From the NCBI GenBank assembly GCA_965249555.1, contig OZ252243.1:1792001-1856000 (forward strand): a DNA stretch of 64,000 bases, written 5' to 3'. Below the pieces are notes generated by a model, which worked only from the letters and a program-made list of their open reading frames with translations, was not told where the DNA came from and ran no database searches. Each line of letters opens with the position of its first letter. The first letter of the stretch is position 1. The stretch is from Nitrosopumilus sp. GTDB lineage: Archaea; Thermoproteota; Nitrososphaeria; Nitrososphaerales; Nitrosopumilaceae. This document shows positions 22,325 through 53,363 of this stretch, one piece after another. A program made the translations under genes and the position numbers.

Positions 22325-23197
22325 TTATGTATTATCTAACTCCTCATTCCCTAACATAACTAAAGAGTGATTATTTGATTGTAGTAGGAGTAATTCTCCT
22401 GTCATTTCAGGCTTGTTACAGTATAATTTCTTATAATAATCTGCATATTTTTCATGTAAATCATAAATTTTATCTTCCAGTACCTCATCATGATCAAACA
22501 AAGCAATATGGTTTTTTACGAGGAAATTACGGTGCATTGGATACCCATGTGATAAGAATTTTTCAGTAAATGTTTTTATCATTTTATCTTTATTTTCTAT
22601 TTTTTTCTCTGTAAGTATTTCATCTAAATATTGTTTACATGATTTTTCTGATGCTCTATATGCACCTATTAACAATGCAGGTATTTTATCTGTTAAATTT
22701 AATTTTACTAAAGGATCCTGAACCCCTTCTATGAAACTTATAGATTCTTTAATAGAATGTGCAGGTACAAATGAATTTGTTTGTGGATCTCTAACCTGAG
22801 GATCAAGAGGTCCTAATTCACCAGCCTTACAAACAATTAATTCATCAGCACCAAGAGCAATCAATGTTGCAGCACTCTTAGCATAGAAAGGCACTATTAC
22901 AGTAATTTTATCTGCATAACTTTTAAACAAATTTAGAATTTTATATGCTGAATTAATGTCTCCACCACATGATTCTAAAAGAATATCCAAATGATCCAAG
23001 TGTTTGAGTTTACGTAGTATTTTGTTTAATGATACGCTAGTTTGAAAACTGATGGATTGGTGACATATGACAACTAAAACTTTTGATTTGCGTATTTCTT
23101 CTATTTCTTTGATAAGTGTTTTAGTTTCATCTAATGTACAACCGTTTGAGTCTTGGTTTTGTGATGGTTTTTGTTCAGGATTTTTTGAGTCGCTCAA
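22325..23197 (-). CDS. SDH-family ClpP/S49-like serine protease
   Basis: LESCGGD, PFYAKSAATLIALGADE, GELGPLDPQ, SHGYPM. Confidence 0.88.
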   Translation of the reverse strand: MSDSKNPEQKPSQNQDSNGCTLDETKTLIKEIEEIRKSKVLVVICHQSISFQTSVSLNKILRKLKHLDHLDILLESCGGDINSAYKILNLFKSYADKITVIVPFYAKSAATLIALGADELIVCKAGELGPLDPQVRDPQTNSFVPAHSIKESISFIEGVQDPLVKLNLTDKIPALLIGAYRASEKSCKQYLDEILTEKKIENKDKMIKTFTEKFLSHGYPMHRNFLVKNHIALFDHDEVLEDKIYDLHEKYADYYKKLYCNKPEMTGELLLLQSNNHSLVMLGNEELDNT

Positions 23198-44800: not shown

Positions 44801-46763
44801 GGAACCTGAAACAACCTACACCTATTCCATAAGGGCAGTGTCTATAGCTGGAGACAGTGCCGCCTCTGATGTCGTGTCTGTAACTACACTTGCAGCACCA
44901 CCTGATACAACTCCATCACCAACTCCACCTGATACAGAAAAACCAGTAATCGCACCAGCAGGATCTGATACAACAATTGAGTTAACTCAAACCAACACTT
45001 ACAATGAACAAGGCGCTGCTGTAACTGATAATGACCCAGCCTACTCTGGAACAGTAGCAGCAGTCTCTGGTGATACACCTGACACCAGTGGTATAGGGGT
45101 ATACACCGTAACATATACTGCACCAGCTGATGCGGCAGGTAACACACCAGACCAACAATCAATTGTAATTACTGTAGTTGATACCACACCACCAACCTTT
45201 GATGTTGATGGTAACACAGCTGACTATGCAACTACAGTACCATTTGGCGGAGCATACACCCCAGGTGTAATTAACAATGCATCTGATATCTCAGGAATTG
45301 CATCCAGTACAGTTGGCGGTGAAACAGTCAATGTCGACACTTCTGGAGAGTATGTTGTAACTTATACTGTAACTGACAACAATGGATTACCTGCTACCAT
45401 CACTGAAACTGTAACAGTATCTGCAGCACCAGCAGTAGATGCTGTAAGAAATCCTGATAATTCCGTTACAGTATCCTGGAGTAATATAGAAACTAATCTC
45501 CCCAATGAATATGTTCTTACTATTGGTGACGGTAGTAATGATTTTGATACTTTCACTCCAACTGTAGAATCAAATCAATATACTATCACTACTACTATAA
45601 CTCGTATCATCGATCTAAACGATGCTAATCAAGTTTGTATAAAGGGTGTTGGTGTAGATAATAAAATATGTGAACCTGTACCTGAAGCATTTGATATAAC
45701 TAGTGGAGATGGTAGCACCACTAGTATACCTTCTGACACACCAAAGAAAAAAGGTGGAGATTCTAATGAATGGAAAACAAAGCCAACCTTTGGCAAACAT
45801 TGGAATAATCAAGCAGTACAGCTAGTTGATGACGGCTTTGTCTTTAATGGCATGCCATTAACCATTACAAACAACTGGCACACTGACTTTGATCTGACTA
45901 GCAGCATTATTGGTGATAACAATACAGTCCACATCAAAGGATATGCAACAAATGGCCTAAAGTCGGTATCTCTATCCCTTGGAGTTCCAGAAATTGGCCT
46001 GAAAACTAATGCAGAGTCCCACATTATAGTGAATGTAAATAGCAACTATACCAGTCCTGCAGGCTATGACATTGCAGATATCGTCCATGAGCAAAAAGAG
46101 GGACTGGTAAATGAGGAGATGACTAGCGCATCCATTGACAAAGTCAAATGCATATCATCAGATACTGCAGAGAGGTGCTTTGATGTTACCATATCATTTG
46201 TAATAATGGCACCATTATCCCATGAAGTATTGGCAATTAATGCAGTTGACAAACAACGTTATTCTACTACCACATATATCAACGAAGGTGTAGAGTTTAC
46301 AGGAGAAGCATTACTTGCAGCAGCAACTCATGAACTAAAACAAAAGCATGGCAACCAGAATCCGTTTGAGACCATATCACTAACCCAGCAGGACAGACGT
46401 TACCAGGTCTGGGAGGACCAATATGGATACATATGGTCACAAAATGACTATGGCACCTGGTTGCAGATTACAAGACCAGATATACAACAAAGAGATGATC
46501 TGCCAACAAGCGTAATGACTAGAATTCATTCAAACTTTGCAAATCTGGTAATTGATGAGCAGGATAGGGCAACCCTAATCTTTGATAGTAAGGCAATTCA
46601 GGGAACCTTGGATGAATCATTCTCATATGACATGCCATTAAGGCTGGACAGAGTATCAGATCCCGCATTGCTGGAATCACTATCCATACAAGAGATGCTA
46701 GCCCAGGAGATGCTGTGTGACTGTATGATATATGAGGACTCTGATCTTAGCTGGAACGACTAG
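41898..46763 (+). CDS. Giant secreted FN3/Ig-like repeat surface protein, paralogue B
   Basis: 1621 aa; shares signal peptide, a central block (about 44120-44910 vs 9330-10120) and the C-terminus with paralogue A; other modules differ. Confidence 0.9.
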   Translation: MNKMLFNALVGGGVVLFAISLLASADAQIYAPGQTAIDGDSFETRSLPTQTVVNFDPLKEGVYTATAGGQTKTRTVVSDDLNDEVTISFNIASSSVNTVILSYGGEEVARQTVTRNPTTISVGDVTSTSIEILWKTRDNAFDYHVYRDGKLQGNLNFLYSDPRTGGVNTGLTPGTTYEYYVGVSYFDPPLTVNSNTLTVTTTVPDTEKPVITVNEESFSIELGETYTPFTYSATDDTDGDIAGGVIVDGDTVDIDVANTYTVTFDVADAAGNLAETVTRTVTVTDTTPPETPVLGLRAVTDTHITLFWGAVGNADSYTLTRIVGAETSEIPDITGTSYNDDSLEPETNYKYTITATNTFETSDSSNEVTITTLATTTITYTADQTAIEADSFDVYVVLSLDEVFVEFDPRHLGVYSVTLDGVTKTIAVTRDNLDDTIVITFDYVNSYVGNAVLSFDDKVVVRQTVTNESAPTVDAVRNADNSITLSWSNIVANDFIIFVVKDGISDELARFADSPQTITDRDLLDKINDSDAIGVAGLGEDTGVAQDVIDAITAAITDGQLDDTIPAQNPEAPDTTAPPVPAITTPSATVGASPITINGGSTEAGATIELFRGGTSVDTTTADGTGAFSFTGVALDEGPNSFTARASDGVNISGPSPAIVITLDSIAPVITVNPLTVTLPAGSAQPDLLEGVITDDGSPVTPSGTVNIDTPDDYTITYDSTDGTNTAVSATRTYTVTVATPPATETPAIKTGSFEVTNPIDTNDLLVEFVALKAGTFTITAGTSTDTVDVTDTDVTDEIVKSKQIPVNHEFAGDVILSFDDKTVASTTASLLAIRAGSFDYTGDAAGDVTVSFVPLRAGTFLVEAGDASDDIVVATGDIGNTVSSDPLSLGNGFSSDILILLNGDVYLRPPVVTLPGIPTLEAETPTHNSVTLSWDKIASVTGYILSRTSGGATTEIPVTETSYDDTLEPETTYTYSIRAVSIAGDSAASDVVSVTTLAAPPDTTPSPTPPDTEKPVIAPAGSDTTIELTQTNTYNEQGAAVTDNDPAYSGTVAAVSGDTPDTSGIGVYTVTYTAPADAAGNTPDQQSIVITVVDTTPPTFDVDGNTADYATTVPFGGAYTPGVINNASDISGIASSTVGGETVNVDTSGEYVVTYTVTDNNGLPATITETVTVSAAPAVDAVRNPDNSVTVSWSNIETNLPNEYVLTIGDGSNDFDTFTPTVESNQYTITTTITRIIDLNDANQVCIKGVGVDNKICEPVPEAFDITSGDGSTTSIPSDTPKKKGGDSNEWKTKPTFGKHWNNQAVQLVDDGFVFNGMPLTITNNWHTDFDLTSSIIGDNNTVHIKGYATNGLKSVSLSLGVPEIGLKTNAESHIIVNVNSNYTSPAGYDIADIVHEQKEGLVNEEMTSASIDKVKCISSDTAERCFDVTISFVIMAPLSHEVLAINAVDKQRYSTTTYINEGVEFTGEALLAAATHELKQKHGNQNPFETISLTQQDRRYQVWEDQYGYIWSQNDYGTWLQITRPDIQQRDDLPTSVMTRIHSNFANLVIDEQDRATLIFDSKAIQGTLDESFSYDMPLRLDRVSDPALLESLSIQEMLAQEMLCDCMIYEDSDLSWND
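41927..41937 (+). repeat. G11 homopolymer in signal-peptide codons
   Basis: Same tract as 6981-6991. Confidence 0.9.
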
Positions 46764-46797
46764 GTTCCGTCACATATTTGAGAATTATATGTAATTA

Positions 46798-47074
46798 GGT
46801 GATTGGGTACCTACTACCCCTAAGATTATTATTGAATATTTCACAAAAACAATGGATGGATTTTGTATCATTTGCAAAAACAATCCCTGATGAATTATTA
46901 ATGCAATTCCTGGAATCAAAATATGACAAGAATCCTTCCCGTACTTTTTGCAAAAATAAAACTCTCTGTACCAAAGGCAGAGACAAAATGAGATGGCATA
47001 TCTGAGATGTCCTGATTCAGCAAAGCACGCTAGGAGGTGTCTGCAGTAGGGTTGGAGACGATTTCGTATGGGAG
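46798..47074 (+). mobile_element. Chimeric IS1595 left end plus IS110 end, second copy
   Basis: Near-identical to 11722-11998. Confidence 0.85.
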
Positions 47075-47570
47075 ATTCAATGACTCTCACAAGTTATGCG
47101 CATATGCCGGAGTCGTGCCATCAGTTAGAAACTCTGCAGATTACATTATGGCAGCATAACCAAAAGGGGAAGCATGACACTACGATGGGTTCTCATCCAA
47201 TGCGTCCATACCCATGCACTGCATGCCAAGAACAGTGACATTACAAAATTTTACAATCGCATTAAGAAAAAGAGAGGCTCATCAAAAGATGTAGTTGCCG
47301 CATCATCCCAGATTCTGCGAGTGATTTACTGGATGCTAAAAGAGAGGAGAGAATTTGTACAGAATTACAGTTAGGACTGCAAGTCGCGTGTTAGATGTTG
47401 AGGGACAAGCCTCGTTTCTTTAACTGCGAATAATCCTAACGAAGGGATGAAGATAGCATTGAGGAACAAGCCTTGTATGGATACATGTCCGTCATCTTTT
47501 GATTGAAAGCATTCCCTAGCGAAAGATATGCCTTGGGATGCAAAAAAGTGGGAAATGTATAAAAACAATT
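47075..47570 (+). mobile_element. 3' part of a second IS110 lineage (transposase C-terminus and non-coding end)
   Basis: KLCAYAGVVPSVRNS...ITKRGSMTLRWVLIQ...VAAS..ILRVIYWMLKE; right boundary approximate. Confidence 0.8.
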
Positions 47571-47622
47571 CACATGGATCAATCTTATTACCATTTCCTA
47601 AATTTTCTTGATTTTAAGAAAG

Positions 47623-47673
47623 TGTTACATTAGAGACATGGAATCAGGGGATGTTACATTAGAGACATGGAAT
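47623..47673 (+). repeat. 22-bp direct repeat, period 29
   Basis: TGTTACATTAGAGACATGGAAT at 47623 and 47652. Confidence 0.9.
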
Positions 47674-48214
47674 TATATAAAAACGCCTTTAACAAGAATT
47701 CTACACTATTCCAATATGAGTAAACATTTTATATTTCCTACTCTAAATTATTCTATGGGAAATTCTAAAAGAACTCCTAATGAACAGAGATCCGATGTTA
47801 ATCAGACTCATGAAAATAACAATCCAGAACGTCAAGCAATGCTAGATAATCGTAGTAGACAGATAAATAAAAAACAAAAATAGAATTTGTTTGACTTTTT
47901 TTTAAAATTCCACACATATTGTCGTCACTTTAATTTCCAAGTTAAATGCTTTTTATCTAATATTTTGAATCTAAATTAACATTCAACCCAACATTGAAAA
48001 TATAGATCCTGCTATTTTTACTACAACTTCACACATTGGTGCGATTTTAATACATTTTTCATAGAATTTTTTAAATTTTTTGTATGTTGAATACATATTA
48101 TTGATTTTAAAGATCAGCAAAAAGAATTCAGAAATACAGTTTGAAAAATTTAGACCTCGTTTTGGAATTAATGATATGGGAAAAGGGTCAGATGGAAATT
48201 ATTTCATAAATTAA

Positions 48215-48345
48215 AAGGGTCTGTGAGCTCATCTTTCGATGTCTCATACCTGTTCATACGAGGCTTATTCCTCAATGCTATCTTCAGCGAGCTCATCTTT
48301 CGATGTCTCATACCTGTCCAGGAGACCGATTAACAATACCTCCTT
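48215..48345 (+). ncRNA. Repeat-spacer-repeat RNA-like element related to the DUF3800-downstream motif
   Basis: 29-bp exact repeats at 48225-48253 and 48289-48317 with a 35-bp spacer; hairpin and 3' ACCG..TAAC.ATACC shared with 52458-52530. Confidence 0.65.
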
Positions 48346-48787
48346 ATTTTTATTAAATGTTGGTAATGACAATATTTGATAATCTAATGAAATGGGCCAA
48401 AACTAACAATCAGGATCCATTTTAAATAATACATTTAACACCATAATAATATGTATGGAATGGAATATTATGAAAATCACCCATCTTGTAATCCTTCTTT
48501 AGGACAAGATATAACAAAAATTCATTTCCGTAATAAACACCTTCATGCTGTGTGTAATTCAAAAACTAACAAATGTTCTGAACATTATGATGAATATCAT
48601 TTACTAAAACCGCTAGTTACTGTGATGTTACTAGGTTCTGAGTGATCAAGGATCTATTTTATTAATAATGATATTTGTTACTAATTATGTCTGAAGATGA
48701 CGAAAAACCTGCAAAAGGTGTAACAATCGGTACAAAACCAGTGTTTAAAGAAGAATACACTGCAAATAGAGATAAAAAGAAAGATAA

Positions 48788-49100
48788 TGATTAGTGAAGA
48801 AATTCTCTTGAATGAAGTTAATGCCAAATACACTCGTCAGTTAACTTCTTGGACATAATTAAATCACAAATCATCTACTTTTTTGCAATTAAACGGATTA
48901 CTTTTATCTATAATTGTTATTGGAATTTCTACGGCTACTATAGATAACTATGCATCTTTACTATTAATTTTTTCATCTAGTGCTTGGCGCATAGACCAAC
49001 CTTGATTATTCTAATACTTCTCTCAGATCAAACTTCTAGTGATTCGGATATTACTACACTTGTAATTAGTGGATTAGTTTTAATTTTATTTTCATATACT
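48788..49100 (+). pseudogene. Degraded membrane protein with premature stop
   Basis: MISEEILLNEVNAKYTRQLTSWT*LNHKSSTFLQLNGLLLSIIVIG...; boundaries approximate. Confidence 0.4.
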
Positions 49101-49132
49101 TCCCAAAGAAAAAAAACTACAAAAAAGGGGTC

Positions 49133-49471
49133 ATGACAGATATGACCTATATCATATTCTTTGTATTAGGAGTATTTTGTGGTTTAGGAATTCTTCTTGG
49201 GATTGATTCAGCGTATGGGATTGATTATCAGAAAGCAGATGCTGTTGATTTCACATATGGGATACCCGTAGCAATTGGAGGTCATGCAGCACTTGCCTTT
49301 TTTACATTAATGGCTATGACAGTTTCAATTATCAGGATTTCAAGGGTTGAAAGAAAACTAAAAAGAGCCAACAATACTAAATGGATTCCATTTGTTGGAG
49401 GAGTAACTGTAGGTTTTGGAATAATTAATGCACGCAATTTCTTTGTAAATGGCATACCTCCATTATGGTGA
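49133..49471 (+). CDS. Small three-TM membrane protein
   Basis: Three hydrophobic segments; purine-rich RBS-like AAGGGG upstream. Confidence 0.55.
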   Translation: MTDMTYIIFFVLGVFCGLGILLGIDSAYGIDYQKADAVDFTYGIPVAIGGHAALAFFTLMAMTVSIIRISRVERKLKRANNTKWIPFVGGVTVGFGIINARNFFVNGIPPLW

Positions 49472-49924
49472 AAATTAATAAAATAGGTACTAAATTTCTC
49501 ATTAAATTTTTTCTAAAAAATCACTGTTGGCCAGCGTGCTAATTTCTTTTTTATCTTTAATTAACCCTTCAGCTTTTGGAATCATTCTAGGAAAAAACGA
49601 AGTTACAGATAACATCAATATACAAATACAAAATAATGACAAAAATTGTCTTGTGTTTTGCATCAATTGTAATCAATTAATATTTATCAAAGTTTGCTAA
49701 AAACATTTGTTGGTTATTTTCTTATTGTATATATGATTATATTTTAGTAGGTTCTAATTATGATATACTTTGACGATAACCAATATCTGAGATTTGTATA
49801 TCCTTATTTACAAAATTTGTATAAAAGTATCATACATTTGAAATAAAAAAATAGGCTAGTTTATTGGTAGCCCATACCACTCGAAAACTGACATTATTAG
49901 GATCAATCAGATTAAAAACTTTGT

Positions 49925-49995
49925 GGGCTGGTAGTTTAATGGTAGAATTATCACTCGAAAACTGGTAGGTCAGGGTTCGATTCCCTGCCAGTCCA
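49925..49995 (+). tRNA. Atypical tRNA-like gene (Ala-type acceptor, ambiguous CGA/GAA anticodon)
   Basis: GGGCTGG/CCAGTCC-A acceptor; D-loop AATGGTA; T arm CAGGG-TTCGATT-CCCTG; irregular anticodon arm ATCA-CTCGAAAAC-TGGT. Confidence 0.7.
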
Positions 49996-50021
49996 CACTA
50001 GAAATGATTATATTTTACTTT

Positions 50022-50844
50022 GGCGATTAGGTACCTACTGCCCCTAACATATACTTCAACAATAAATTAAACAAATTACAATCCCTGTTGTTGTAATCCC
50101 CATTCCATCTCTCTTGATGTACAGTAAAAATTTGCCTAGACTCACTCCATGATGCTTTGCCATGTTCTCTTTGGCAAAACTCCAAAAGCCCTCAATACCG
50201 TTAATGTAAACATCACTTTTGCCAAACATCTTGCTATGATCTATTGAGAGATGTTTGTAGCCATTGAACACAAGTGAATCACATCCCTTTCACTTGTCAA
50301 TGTATACAATGCTTCCTTTTCTGACCTTCTTGATGGTACTTGCAAGTAATGTTTTAGCTTTGACGTTATTTACAATCTCAACGTAAACCCTGCCGTTTCT
50401 CTCTAAAATTCCAAACACAATGGTCTTGTTTTTGGCACCACGTCCACGATTTCCCATTCCTTTTTCCTCCAAAATACCCCGCCTCGTCAGCCTCAATCTG
50501 GCTCTTTAGAACCTTGTCTGTATCTGCCAATTCCTCAAGTATGGAATATCTGATTGCATCAAATGCCCTCAGAGCTGTCTTGTAACTTTTGCATCTGCTC
50601 TGTTGCAGTCTTGGCAGACACGGATAGCCCAAAGAGCTTGATCAGTGAGAGACATTTGGAATTCTAATCAATGAGAATTTGGAACTGGAAAACGGTCTGA
50701 AATCTTTCTGGCATTTTGTGCATCTCATTCTGTCCCTGCCTTTCATGATATAGAGAGCTTTGTTTTTGCAAAAGATACAAAATCCATCCATTATTTTTGT
50801 GAAATATTCCATAATAATCTAGGGGCAGTAGGTACCCAATCACC
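50022..50844 (-). mobile_element. IS1595-family element with multiply frameshifted transposase
   Basis: 25-bp TIRs; IEADE..YFGG, RGRGAKNKTIVFGILER, INGIEGFWSFAK. Confidence 0.9.
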
Positions 50845-50912
50845 ATGATATAATTTAGATTTAATCAACACTTTTCTTACATTTAATTAAGATCAGTGCC
50901 TATACAACTCAA

Positions 50913-51089
50913 ATGGCTGATGAAAAAAATGAGATCGAAAAACTCATTGATAATATGATTATTGGTGGCGATGAGTTAGTTGACAATCTAAAAACTATCT
51001 TACCCAATTCACTTGCAGAATCTATGGTTATGTTTCATGAATCAAATGTTACAAATCTAAAGAAAATCAAAGAATTCCTTAACAAATAG
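50913..51089 (+). CDS. Small hypothetical protein (58 aa, not in ORF track)
   Basis: MADEKNEIEKLIDNMIIGGDELVDNLK...KEFLNK. Confidence 0.65.
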   Translation: MADEKNEIEKLIDNMIIGGDELVDNLKTILPNSLAESMVMFHESNVTNLKKIKEFLNK

Positions 51090-51154
51090 ATTCAAAGTCT
51101 TGATTCCTATTATTGCTACTATATCCTTTTTAATCACTGTTTGAAATTTTTAGT

Positions 51155-51535
51155 GTGACTAGATCTAGAACTATTTCCATTGTTGTAAAAAAGAAGACTG
51201 GAGATGCATTTGATGCAATTTTAGAAATCCCTCCAAAGATGATGCCTGATGCAAAAATGAATAATGATGGTTGGTGGTTCTTTACTGGCCCTCATGGTAA
51301 ATCTAGACTAAAATTCAATGAAAACAAGTCATTTGGAATTTTAGATCATCAATTTGTTGATGAAGAATCTTCTTGGGATGTTCCAATGCGAGTGGTTCCT
51401 AGTGGTGATTTCTCTGAAGTTGTAATTACTTTGAATAAGCCTGCTGAATTAACTGATGTTCAGTTTGATCAAAGAATATCCGAAATTGGTGAGATGATAG
51501 TTGCAATGAAAAATATCCTTGAATCTGACTCTTAA
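51155..51535 (+). CDS. SRPBCC-like conserved protein
   Basis: FGILDH...VPMRVVP motif. Confidence 0.7.
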   Translation: MTRSRTISIVVKKKTGDAFDAILEIPPKMMPDAKMNNDGWWFFTGPHGKSRLKFNENKSFGILDHQFVDEESSWDVPMRVVPSGDFSEVVITLNKPAELTDVQFDQRISEIGEMIVAMKNILESDS

Positions 51536-51713
51536 TGTTTTGATTTAAAATTATTTTTGCGGATAGAAATTCATTACATATCTAAAAAATTGAAATTTCA
51601 GTAATTACATAAAAAATCATTTCAAATTATGTCTGTATTGTCAAAATAATACCTCTCTGAGTTAACAGTAAACACAGTTCTATCTTTTTATCTCACACAT
51701 GATATTTTGAATC

Positions 51714-52457
51714 ATGTATTACTTGTACATTGATGAAAGTGGAGATTCAGGAGATTATTTAGATGAATCTAATAAAGTCATAGAGGGAAGTTCCAAATTT
51801 TTTACTCTGGCTGGAATCATAGTAGATGATACTCTAAAAACGAATCTAGATAATGAAATTAATTCCATAAGTGACAGATATTTTTCAACTATTTCACTTC
51901 CAGAAAATTTCAAGATTCATTATCATCCATTAAGAAACAAACGTCCTCCATATGACAAATTATTAGATAGTCAAAGGTTTCAATTGGCAAATGACATGTT
52001 TGAACTCATCAAAAAATCAAACTGTCATCTTTTGTCAGTTACAATAAATCTAGAACGTCATTGTAAAAAATATGGCATACCTGCCAATCCCAAAGCATAT
52101 GCCATGTTGATAATACTTGAGAGGTTTCAAGATTTTCTTGAGGAAAATGGCGCGGAAGGCAGAGCAATTTATGAAAAATTCAATAAAAAAGCAAGGAAAA
52201 AAGTGGAGCGTACAATAAGAGGATTGAAGGAAATTTTACGTTTTAGACATTATAAAGAATTAGACAACATCCGAGGTCATGTGGAAAATGGAGATCCTAA
52301 GATATCTCCAATATTACAACTTGCAGATTTCTTTGCATATGCCGTATGGATAAAACGAACCACTTCTGATGCTTCCAAAGATAGATGGCTTTCAATCAAA
52401 GACAAGTACTATCGATTAGATTATGGTTGGTATAAAGCAGGAAATGTTGAAATCTAA
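51714..52457 (+). CDS. DUF3800-family protein (RNase H-like fold predicted)
   Basis: N-terminal YLYIDESGD, C-terminal LQLADFFAYAV. Confidence 0.88.
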   Translation: MYYLYIDESGDSGDYLDESNKVIEGSSKFFTLAGIIVDDTLKTNLDNEINSISDRYFSTISLPENFKIHYHPLRNKRPPYDKLLDSQRFQLANDMFELIKKSNCHLLSVTINLERHCKKYGIPANPKAYAMLIILERFQDFLEENGAEGRAIYEKFNKKARKKVERTIRGLKEILRFRHYKELDNIRGHVENGDPKISPILQLADFFAYAVWIKRTTSDASKDRWLSIKDKYYRLDYGWYKAGNVEI

Positions 52458-52540
52458 AGGCGATTCCTGAGCTCTCTTGCGAGTCTCATAGTTAGCATTA
52501 CACCAACGGAACCGTACTAACTATACCAATCTCTATTTTT
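52458..52540 (+). ncRNA. Putative DUF3800-associated structured RNA
   Basis: Hairpin TGAG-CT-CTC-TTGC-GAG-T-CTCA; stem ATAGTTAG/CTAACTAT; CGATTCC can pair with loop GGAACCG (pseudoknot); T-run follows. Confidence 0.65.
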
Positions 52541-52892
52541 TAAAGGTTGGGATTCTCAAATCATTTTAAAAATATCCATAATCATCAAATATTTTATTTA
52601 CGTACAAAAGCTAAACCCCTCTTCTGAGGACTCCAAGTGGAGTAGATCTTAAGGTCCTGGTGTTAGCTGGTGTTATACTACATATGCCCTTAGGCCAACA
52701 GTTCCTGATGTTTCCCGGTAATGCAGTTTGTGGTGTTGCCATATGTATGAGGCAGACTGCCGGGGTTGCTTTTCAATAATTGTCAAATCAACCAAATTGC
52801 TACCAAGTCTCTTTTCAATCTCGTCTGATACTTTGATGGCATCTTCCCAACTTGAGAAGTATGTATCAACCTTCACACACAAATCAATACAA

Positions 52893-53363
52893 TTACACAG
52901 AGTGGTTTGTTTCAGATGTGATGGAAAAGGTCAGTACAAGAATGAATTTGTAATTGCATTGATTACAGGAATATTTTTGTCTCTTCGTTCCATTTTTGAG
53001 TTTTCTGAATCCACGTTTTACTATTGTAGTCGAATTGCATTTAGGACAAACTTGCGGATTGTTTATTCTCTCAATTTTATTTTCAGTGATGATATTTTCC
53101 TTTAGAATGATACAGCTCTGAATATGCTTGCAGTGTTTGTTGTCCTGTATTCTTAATAGGTAGTGAAAATCTCCACATTCACAAGTCCATACGTCAGTTT
53201 TTAAGAGCTTTCTGACATTGTATGATTTGTCTGAACTTTGAGAGTCTACAACGTAGTGATTTTTTGTAATCTTTCTGATGGAGTTTGTCTTTGAGAAAAT
53301 CTGTATTACTTTTTGTTTCCTTGAATCAATGCTAATAGGTAACATTATAGGTAATATAAACAT
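52893..53363 (-). pseudogene. SWIM-finger plus zinc-ribbon N-terminus of an IS6/IS1-like transposase, truncated
   Basis: WTCECGDF...CKHI; CPKCNS...KRGFRK...QKYSCNQC; DDE domain missing. Confidence 0.75.

Follow-up and report, generated by a model that had tools for sequence, protein, structure and literature searches.

Probable off-array CRISPR spacer integration in an orphan DUF3800-type element of a Nitrosopumilus genome that holds twelve similar units

Introduction

Off-target integration by Cas1-Cas2 has been seen in E. coli over-producing Cas1-Cas2, where it spawns neo-CRISPR arrays (Nivala et al. 2018, Nat Microbiol, via 10.1101/148544, PMC6698737, PMC7054753). As the citing papers present the work of Nivala, Shipman and Church (2018), natural evidence was only circumstantial and concerned two other species. 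Among the titles listed in our literature search, none dealt with off-array integration as a natural, genome-wide event. In Haloarcula hispanica, a type I-B system with a 30-bp repeat duplicates 29-33 bp when the spacing of the repeat motifs is altered, according to the accessible part of the source (PMC4872114). Another relevant group of sequences accompanies DUF3800 genes, which are described in the portion of Weinberg et al. 2017 (PMC5737381) available to us as associated with 11 dissimilar RNA motifs of unknown function, DUF3800-I to XI.

Here we analyzed a repeat-spacer-repeat unit at positions 48225-48317 of a 64-kb window, meaning the whole stretch of DNA under study, from the 2.23-Mb genome of a Nitrosopumilus sp. 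It is like the E. coli neo-CRISPR cases, as the citing papers present them, in its spacer-sized insert, its repeat-length duplication, its non-CRISPR site, its occurrence in a genome with Cas1-Cas2 and the self-derived inserts. Unlike those cases, it is natural and free of over-expression, the genome has two systems and keeps about 13 such events, and the duplication measures 29 bp against a 30-nt repeat. With the H. hispanica type I-B system, again as far as the accessible part of PMC4872114 goes, it shares the 30-bp repeat class, a duplication size set by the integrase and the range of aberrant duplications (29-33 bp). Unlike a canonical type I-B array, it has no leader, no shared repeat (13/30), no adjacent cas genes and a single spacer that matches the genome itself.

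The element that the unit interrupts is, in its usual form, like DUF3800-I to XI, in the portion of PMC5737381 available to us, in being a putatively structured element beside DUF3800 genes, with a T-rich terminator-like run and a UAA in a conserved single-stranded stretch. Unlike them, it has no Rfam match, is predicted to form a three-stem junction behind the stop codon and is found in one genus; it is set apart from the eleven motifs by the Rfam scan alone. Unlike an IS110/IS1111 bridge or seek RNA, the locus is neither an IS end nor a target site, and it matches no Rfam family. We propose that the unit was probably made by off-array spacer integration.

Results

The unit at 48225-48317

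The two 29-bp repeats are exact copies with a start-to-start distance of 64 bp, and they flank a 35-bp spacer (Table 1). This arrangement, which the initial annotation had described, was confirmed both by reading the sequence and by a repeat finder (family D6). Only 22 isolated exact two-copy direct repeats of at least 26 bp with a gap of 1-600 bp occur in the 2.23-Mb genome; given this small number, the unit exceeds chance. The 29-bp repeat had no second match in its own genome (BLAST of 48200-48350), and a 26-mer of it had no exact match in two public collections, genome_contigs and metagenome_contigs. A bona fide CRISPR array was rejected at this locus: the repeat is unique in the genome and unlike those of the two resident arrays (A and B, described below), there are only two repeats and one spacer, and the window is devoid of cas genes.

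We did not find an orthologous empty site in 40 relatives, which gave spurious short matches only (the match in L046 is coding sequence), or in genome_contigs or metagenome_contigs. The locus is present in three sequencing runs of one study, which was possibly the source of the assembly. Contigs from two of these runs cross it unchanged, and no shorter, insert-free variant was seen in the three. For this locus, the uninterrupted form is known from divergent paralogous motifs only.

Table 1. Features of the locus and its neighborhood (positions in the window; names of the unit's parts follow the reading that we consider probable)
Feature	Position	Strand	Support or remark
3' part of IS110-family element	47073..47579	+	transposase gene end plus ~200 nt of non-coding 3' region
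Nearest protospacer copy	47446..47480	+	3' non-coding region of truncated IS110 copy; 31/35 to spacer reverse complement
Putative orphan DUF3800-type 3' structured element, split by 64-bp unit	48213..48334	+	
Copy 1 of probable duplicated 29-bp target (ectopic 'repeat')	48225..48253	.	exactly identical to 48289-48317
Probable inserted 35-bp 'spacer'	48254..48288	-	reverse complement equals the sense of the IS110 + strand
Copy 2 of probable duplicated 29-bp target	48289..48317	.	sequence and repeat finder
Intact DUF3800 gene	51714..52457	+	PF12686, E 5.8e-18
Uninterrupted DUF3800 3' structured element (predicted)	52455..52533	+	model R1, 83.9 bits

Source of the spacer

The reverse complement of the spacer matches the neighboring IS110 copy (47446-47480; genome 1839446-1839480) at 31/35, exactly as annotated before. 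Ten other IS110 copies match better than this neighbor (32/35), and there are 21 other matching places in all with six mismatches or fewer, every one of them a copy of one IS110-family element. Similarly, BLAST of 48200-48350 against the same genome gave 22 matches to query 56-87 (E 1.3e-8 to 6.8e-6). No perfect match was found among the genomic IS copies; in the best ones (32/35), the mismatches fall at spacer positions 1, 14 and 34. The family assignment is illustrated by an intact copy, L035:691-1806, with PF01548 (3.9e-25) and PF02371 (1.7e-21).

Next to the unit, query 304-810 of 46770-47620 matches about 20 genomic copies at 90-94%, and the IS copies stay alignable to about window 47579, which we took as the 3' end. 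Counted from the transposase stop, the captured segment begins after about 75 nt, and about 99 bp of IS sequence remain between it and the 3' end, so it is an internal piece of the IS. Thus, the initial annotation was right to place the source in the 3' non-coding region of IS110 but not to call it an IS end, and the neighboring copy that it named is not the closest one. The stretch 47446-47480 holds a GAGG-loop-CCTC hairpin whose loop differs between IS copies. The captured segment presumably comes from a structured non-coding region downstream of the transposase, as in IS110/IS1111 bridge or seek RNAs. A contiguous spacer match of 32 nt is far longer than the guide-target pairing of those RNAs.

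Some other features were observed in this neighborhood. The truncated IS110 copy abuts an IS1595-like end (window 46770-47075; 97-98% to other copies), of which an inverted partial copy lies at 50760-50857 (within the region 50009-50857), with 66-nt arms that are 92% complementary. A tRNA gene (49925-49995) sits between the IS1595-like end and its inverted partial copy. In addition, an exact 22-nt direct repeat (47623-47644 and 47652-47673, spaced 29 nt; repeat finder family D13) occurs about 45 nt past the IS110 3' end.

The interrupted DUF3800-type element

When the 64-bp unit (spacer plus one repeat) was deleted in silico, the locus aligned with the 3' flanks of DUF3800 genes. The aligning flanks were window 52455-52533, C1:296479-296551 (genome coordinates, G000:C1, are written in this form) and those from five other genomes of the genus. 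Their common anatomy consists of a closing stem P1, hairpins P2 and P3, then ACCGUA..UAA and a T-rich run, and all three stems are present in the locus once the 64-bp unit is removed. In the locus, GGTCT (48218-48222) is predicted to pair with AGACC (48323-48327) as P1, a pairing already noted in the initial annotation. The P2 hairpin falls within the 29-bp repeat, and P3 (CCTG/CAGG) is divided by the insertion. GATTAAC closes the element, and a T-rich run comes after it at 48345-48355.

We surveyed the pairing in an alignment of seven natural copies, from which the 48213-48334 locus was left out. Pairing was kept in 82% of cells, compared with 72% in shuffles (0/500 reached the observed value), and 9/18 pairs were changed on both sides (1/500 shuffles). 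Comparatively, slid controls gave a pairing of 30-44%. For seven related sequences, these pair counts are suggestive of a P1-P2-P3 structure. A covariance model, R1, was built from the same seven-copy alignment, again without the locus. At the interrupted locus it matched 48213-48280 with 16.9 bits (E 0.066; genome-wide E 0.8), the second-best match in the window. Therefore the resemblance to the motif behind the intact DUF3800 gene, seen by eye in the initial annotation, is real: removal of 64 bp restores the alignment and R1 ranks the locus second in the window.

R1 also detected an orphan copy at C1:22998-23076. Within the genus, 14 of 121 genomes gave a total of 20 other matches with E 0.01 or less. 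Their spans are all 73-90 nt, so none carries an insert, and the multi-repeat versions that the initial annotation had envisaged did not turn up in this search. No Rfam family was found at either element copy, at gathering score in the whole window or with E up to 10 in 46500-53000; thus neither a DUF3800 motif family nor a CRISPR-related family was recovered at the locus. A search upstream of 48215 for a DUF3800 coding remnant (tblastn, three DUF3800 proteins) gave noise only.

Judged by alignment and predicted pairing, 48213-48334 is an orphan, interrupted member of the DUF3800 3' element. This element lies right behind DUF3800 stop codons, with copies also in L064-L080. As a conserved element without an Rfam family, it is a candidate for a twelfth DUF3800-associated RNA motif.

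Resident CRISPR-Cas systems

As the initial annotation stated, no cas genes were found within the 64-kb window; the genome elsewhere, however, has two Cas1-Cas2 modules and two arrays. There are two Cas1 genes (311 and 299 bits), with Cas2 and Cas4 beside each, and no further Cas1 homologs were found in the genome. Since both Cas1 genes are CRISPR-linked, a casposon-type integrase is unlikely. System A has a Cas4-Cas1 fusion and Cas2 and adjoins array A, whose 48 repeats measure 36 nt and whose spacers range from 35 to 44 nt. System B is of type I-B, with the full gene set (cas4, cas1b, cas2, cas6, cas8b, cas7, cas5 and cas3) and an array of 61 repeats of 30 nt. The spacers of array B are 35-41 nt long, namely 35 (12), 36 (25), 37 (17), 38 (4), 39 (1) and 41 nt (1).

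The type I-B adaptation genes (L043:168-4155; G000:C1:1613967-1617954) are broken up by insertion sequences: cas4 and cas1b are separated by an IS1595, and cas2 and cas6 by an IS66. The cas1b frame begins at the IS1595 insertion. Its original start and first residues are gone, and there is no start codon until residue 31.

The dimensions of the unit were compared with those of both arrays. A spacer length of 35 nt is found in 12/60 spacers of array B and 2/47 of array A. The 29-bp duplication is one short of the array B repeat (30), the array A repeat being 36, and the period of 64 is one below the smallest period of array B (65). In a tolerant scan, the unit (29 + 35) was the sole B-sized ectopic event in the genome, and no further growth beyond its single spacer was seen. 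What makes the unit CRISPR-like is that its dimensions are those made by the genome's own adaptation machinery.

The sequence of the repeat shows no such relation. It has no significant similarity to the repeat of array A or array B, and its best identity to the latter, 13/30, is usual among 3000 random genomic sites (P = 0.71). On the same figures, we discarded an apparent ATC-N4-GAT likeness of the ectopic repeat to that of array B.

Among the 107 array spacers (A and B), none had a self match longer than 20 nt. Without self targets among them, a PAM could not be derived from the arrays. No consistent PAM-like flank was found among eight protospacers of ectopic inserts or from the composition of spacer ends; the spacers of array A have an AA bias at one end only.

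Two small units were also noted. Two perfect array A repeats form an orphan mini-array at C1:1884690-1884801, a site remote from array A itself. At C1:1607941-1608087, 1.8 kb from array B, three repeats of a degenerate A-like type (23/36) form a unit.

Twelve sister units in the same genome

Twelve further units of the same architecture were identified in the genome. Their first repeats start at C1:16547, 19053, 23778, 202366, 305877, 649261, 1219275, 1268457, 1882077, 1948572, 2050963 and 2053378. Their repeats are each unique and about 36 bp long, and they enclose inserts of 32-43 bp; the periods are 69-75 bp. The duplications centre on 36 bp when single edge mismatches are allowed; one A-sized unit has only 28 exact bp. 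These sizes fit array A (36 + 35-44), and the twelve units are consistent with off-array integration by the Cas4-Cas1/Cas2 system of that array. Among the 22 isolated repeats, 16 have a gap of 20-59 bp and six a gap of 60-600 bp, and 11 combine a repeat of 28-39 bp with a gap of 32-43 bp. The units at C1:16547 and C1:19053 were dropped by the isolation filter and added back to the count of twelve. Left out of the ectopic count were C1:82220 (an IS end) and C1:1608017 (the degenerate A-like repeat, 23/36). Weaker candidates of the tolerant scan also stayed outside it (C1:18807, 95142, 512985, 664917 and 1864121, and C1:162032, which resembles a tandem repeat).

We found that 8/13 inserts match a distant place in their own chromosome. 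Seven of these belong to sister units (32/32, 35/35, 33/33, 36/38, 35/37, 36/40 and 32/38), and the eighth is the insert at 48254-48288 (32/35). The sources of the sister-unit inserts are ordinary genes of the chromosome, a tRNA-like segment among them. The difference between off-array inserts (8/13) and array spacers (0/107) would be expected if off-array units are not used in interference, so that self-matching inserts are not counter-selected. One of these matches was inspected by eye: insert C1:2050998-2051035 (event 2050963) matches C1:601745-601782 at 36/38, and the source resembles the T-arm region of a tRNA.

For two events, paralogs show the site without an insert. The event at C1:1219275 lies in a multi-copy element. 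Its repeat was mapped once together with the left flank and once together with the right flank; the two alignments fall on the same paralogs and overlap by 36 bp, which shows that these paralogs hold a single copy and no insert. For the event at C1:23778, both repeats map to one position of a paralog, at window 399.

All five events inside open frames of at least 244 aa have a period divisible by 3 and keep the frame. The remaining events are in short frames or pseudogenes, and the 48225-48317 unit is intergenic. We read the frame-keeping of the in-gene events as a signature of selection.

Three of the 13 ectopic events lie less than 1 kb from the genome's five DUF3800 genes or motifs: the one in 48213-48334, C1:23778 (702 bp from the motif at 22998-23076) and C1:649261 (567 bp from the DUF3800 gene L044:6438-7130). 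This is far above the roughly 0.6% of the genome that such neighborhoods make up, in what was a post hoc count. The proximity may reflect DNA that is tolerant of insertions, non-essential and rich in IS.

The distribution along the chromosome was also noted. Cumulative GC skew of the whole genome changes direction at about 0 and 1.0 Mb. One of these turns has four of the seven single-copy self protospacers close by, at 965-1099 kb, and the other has three ectopic landings, at 16.5-23.9 kb. Naive adaptation is biased towards replication termini, which this clustering recalls.

Discussion

In our judgment, the 48225-48317 unit is likely the product of stray spacer integration ('neo-CRISPR') by a CRISPR integrase, with an orphan DUF3800-type element as the landing site. 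We infer the following order of events. A resident Cas1-Cas2 integrase would have captured a 35-bp fragment of an IS110 copy, i.e. self DNA; with more than 20 copies, IS110 is a large capture target. Two staggered strand-transfer attacks, about 29-30 bp apart, would then have occurred in non-CRISPR sequence, and gap repair would have duplicated the 29 bp between the attack sites. The landing site would have been an orphan copy of the conserved element that normally stands behind DUF3800 genes, and the insertion would have split it. Accordingly, one part of the initial annotation is retained, that a DUF3800-type element gained a piece of a mobile element together with a 29-bp duplication of itself. 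The other part, a DUF3800-guided system against IS110, is not.

The likeliest author of the integration is the type I-B system, in view of its 30-nt repeats and spacers mainly of 35-38 nt. By analogy with the altered H. hispanica repeats, a duplication of 29 bp would lie within the range of a type I-B integrase when the repeat motifs are absent or displaced. System A, with its Cas4-Cas1 fusion and 36-nt repeats, is a less likely author. As cas1b lost its start to IS1595, system B may be unable to integrate today. If it is indeed dead, the event at 48225-48317 would predate the IS1595 insertion or be the work of system A.

Several points speak against ectopic integration. The duplication is 29 and not 30 bp, no protospacer is perfect, the repeat has no likeness to the resident ones, and there is no PAM-like flank. 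In addition, the type I-B cas1 is damaged, and no orthologous empty site was found. One rival explanation is a Cas-independent repair patch, in which template switching or break repair copied 35 bp of the IS and duplicated the flanking 29 bp. A multi-copy IS is an easy ectopic template, and neither repeat similarity nor a PAM links the site to a Cas integrase. However, a repair patch leaves unexplained why insert lengths (32-43 bp) and duplication lengths (about 36 bp in 12 units, 29 bp in one) match the two resident arrays, and why other gap sizes are scarce (6/22 at 60-600 bp). No microhomology is evident at the junctions either. We consider this explanation improbable.

A different question is whether the integrated unit has acquired a function. 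Its origin would be ectopic as above, and it would now be transcribed as a putative antisense regulator or guide acting on the IS110 3' non-coding RNA. In its favor, repeat identity has been kept, and the captured segment includes the conserved hairpin of the IS 3' region. The unit is also bounded by a TAA-proximal start and a T-rich run of the kind typical of transcripts of the motif. Nevertheless, the repeats are unlike Cas6 substrates, DNA targeting would strike more than 20 chromosomal sites, and the single spacer gives no sign of growth. A functional unit of this kind seems quite unlikely. As the ectopic repeats differ from both CRISPR repeats, processing by Cas6 is not expected. Since more than 20 IS copies on the chromosome would become targets of a working crRNA, the stray integration is probably inert, as far as its sequence allows one to judge.

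It could also be imagined that DUF3800 RNA loci are preferred landing sites or partners of CRISPR integrases, and that the unit is a nascent guide-bearing RNA, antisense to the guide-RNA region at the IS110 3' side, which would damp transposition. The closeness of three of the 13 ectopic events to DUF3800 genes or motifs, noted above, hints at this; we regard it as very unlikely.

The initial annotation itself favored a Cas-independent system, in which a DUF3800-associated RNA scaffold with an IS110-derived guide would direct a DUF3800 nuclease against IS110 RNA or DNA. The unit does lie inside what appears to be a genuine DUF3800-type structured element, a + strand transcript would have an antisense orientation relative to the 3' non-coding region of IS110, three of the 13 ectopic units have a DUF3800 gene or motif less than 1 kb away, and the association of DUF3800 genes with RNA motifs of unknown function, as given in the accessible portion of PMC5737381, would suit such a role. 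These observations are outweighed by others. The locus has no adjoining DUF3800 gene or remnant, and the homologous loci (20 matches in 14/121 genomes) are never seen with spacers. The twelve sister units have unrelated repeats, lie mostly away from DUF3800 features and carry spacers from ordinary genes. Furthermore, the dimensions follow the resident CRISPR arrays and not the motif, and stems P1 and P3 are broken by the insertion while the element is not extended. With spacer-free homologs, no adjacent DUF3800 gene and twelve unrelated repeats, the DUF3800-guided reading is unsupported, and we hold it to be highly improbable.

Equally improbable is an IS110 scar, the alternative that the initial annotation offered, in which a full IS110 once stood between the repeats and lost all but 35 bp by internal deletion. 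In its favor are the IS110 origin of the insert and the presence of an IS110 fragment 741 bp upstream. However, the kept segment, with about 75 nt between it and the transposase stop and about 99 bp between it and the 3' end, is internal and contains no terminus. Two precise internal deletions would be needed, the same architecture occurs with non-IS inserts, no complete IS110 was found between the 29-bp repeats in 40 relatives, genome_contigs or metagenome_contigs, and we know of no 29-bp target duplication made by IS110-family elements.

Stray integration would account for a structure that might have passed for a new RNA-guided system. The analysis also pointed, as a by-product, to a conserved, putatively structured element behind DUF3800 genes that lies outside every Rfam family. 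With the twelve sister units, about 13 off-array events seem to be retained in one genome, which would be a new natural case of a known mechanism; for the event at 48225-48317, we consider this origin likely. The merits of this record are that the dimensions sort to two resident systems, that some inserts are perfect self copies, that empty-site paralogs exist for two events and that the in-gene events are in frame. In this way, the genome keeps a natural record of the sloppiness of adaptation, of its cost and of a possible origin of new arrays.
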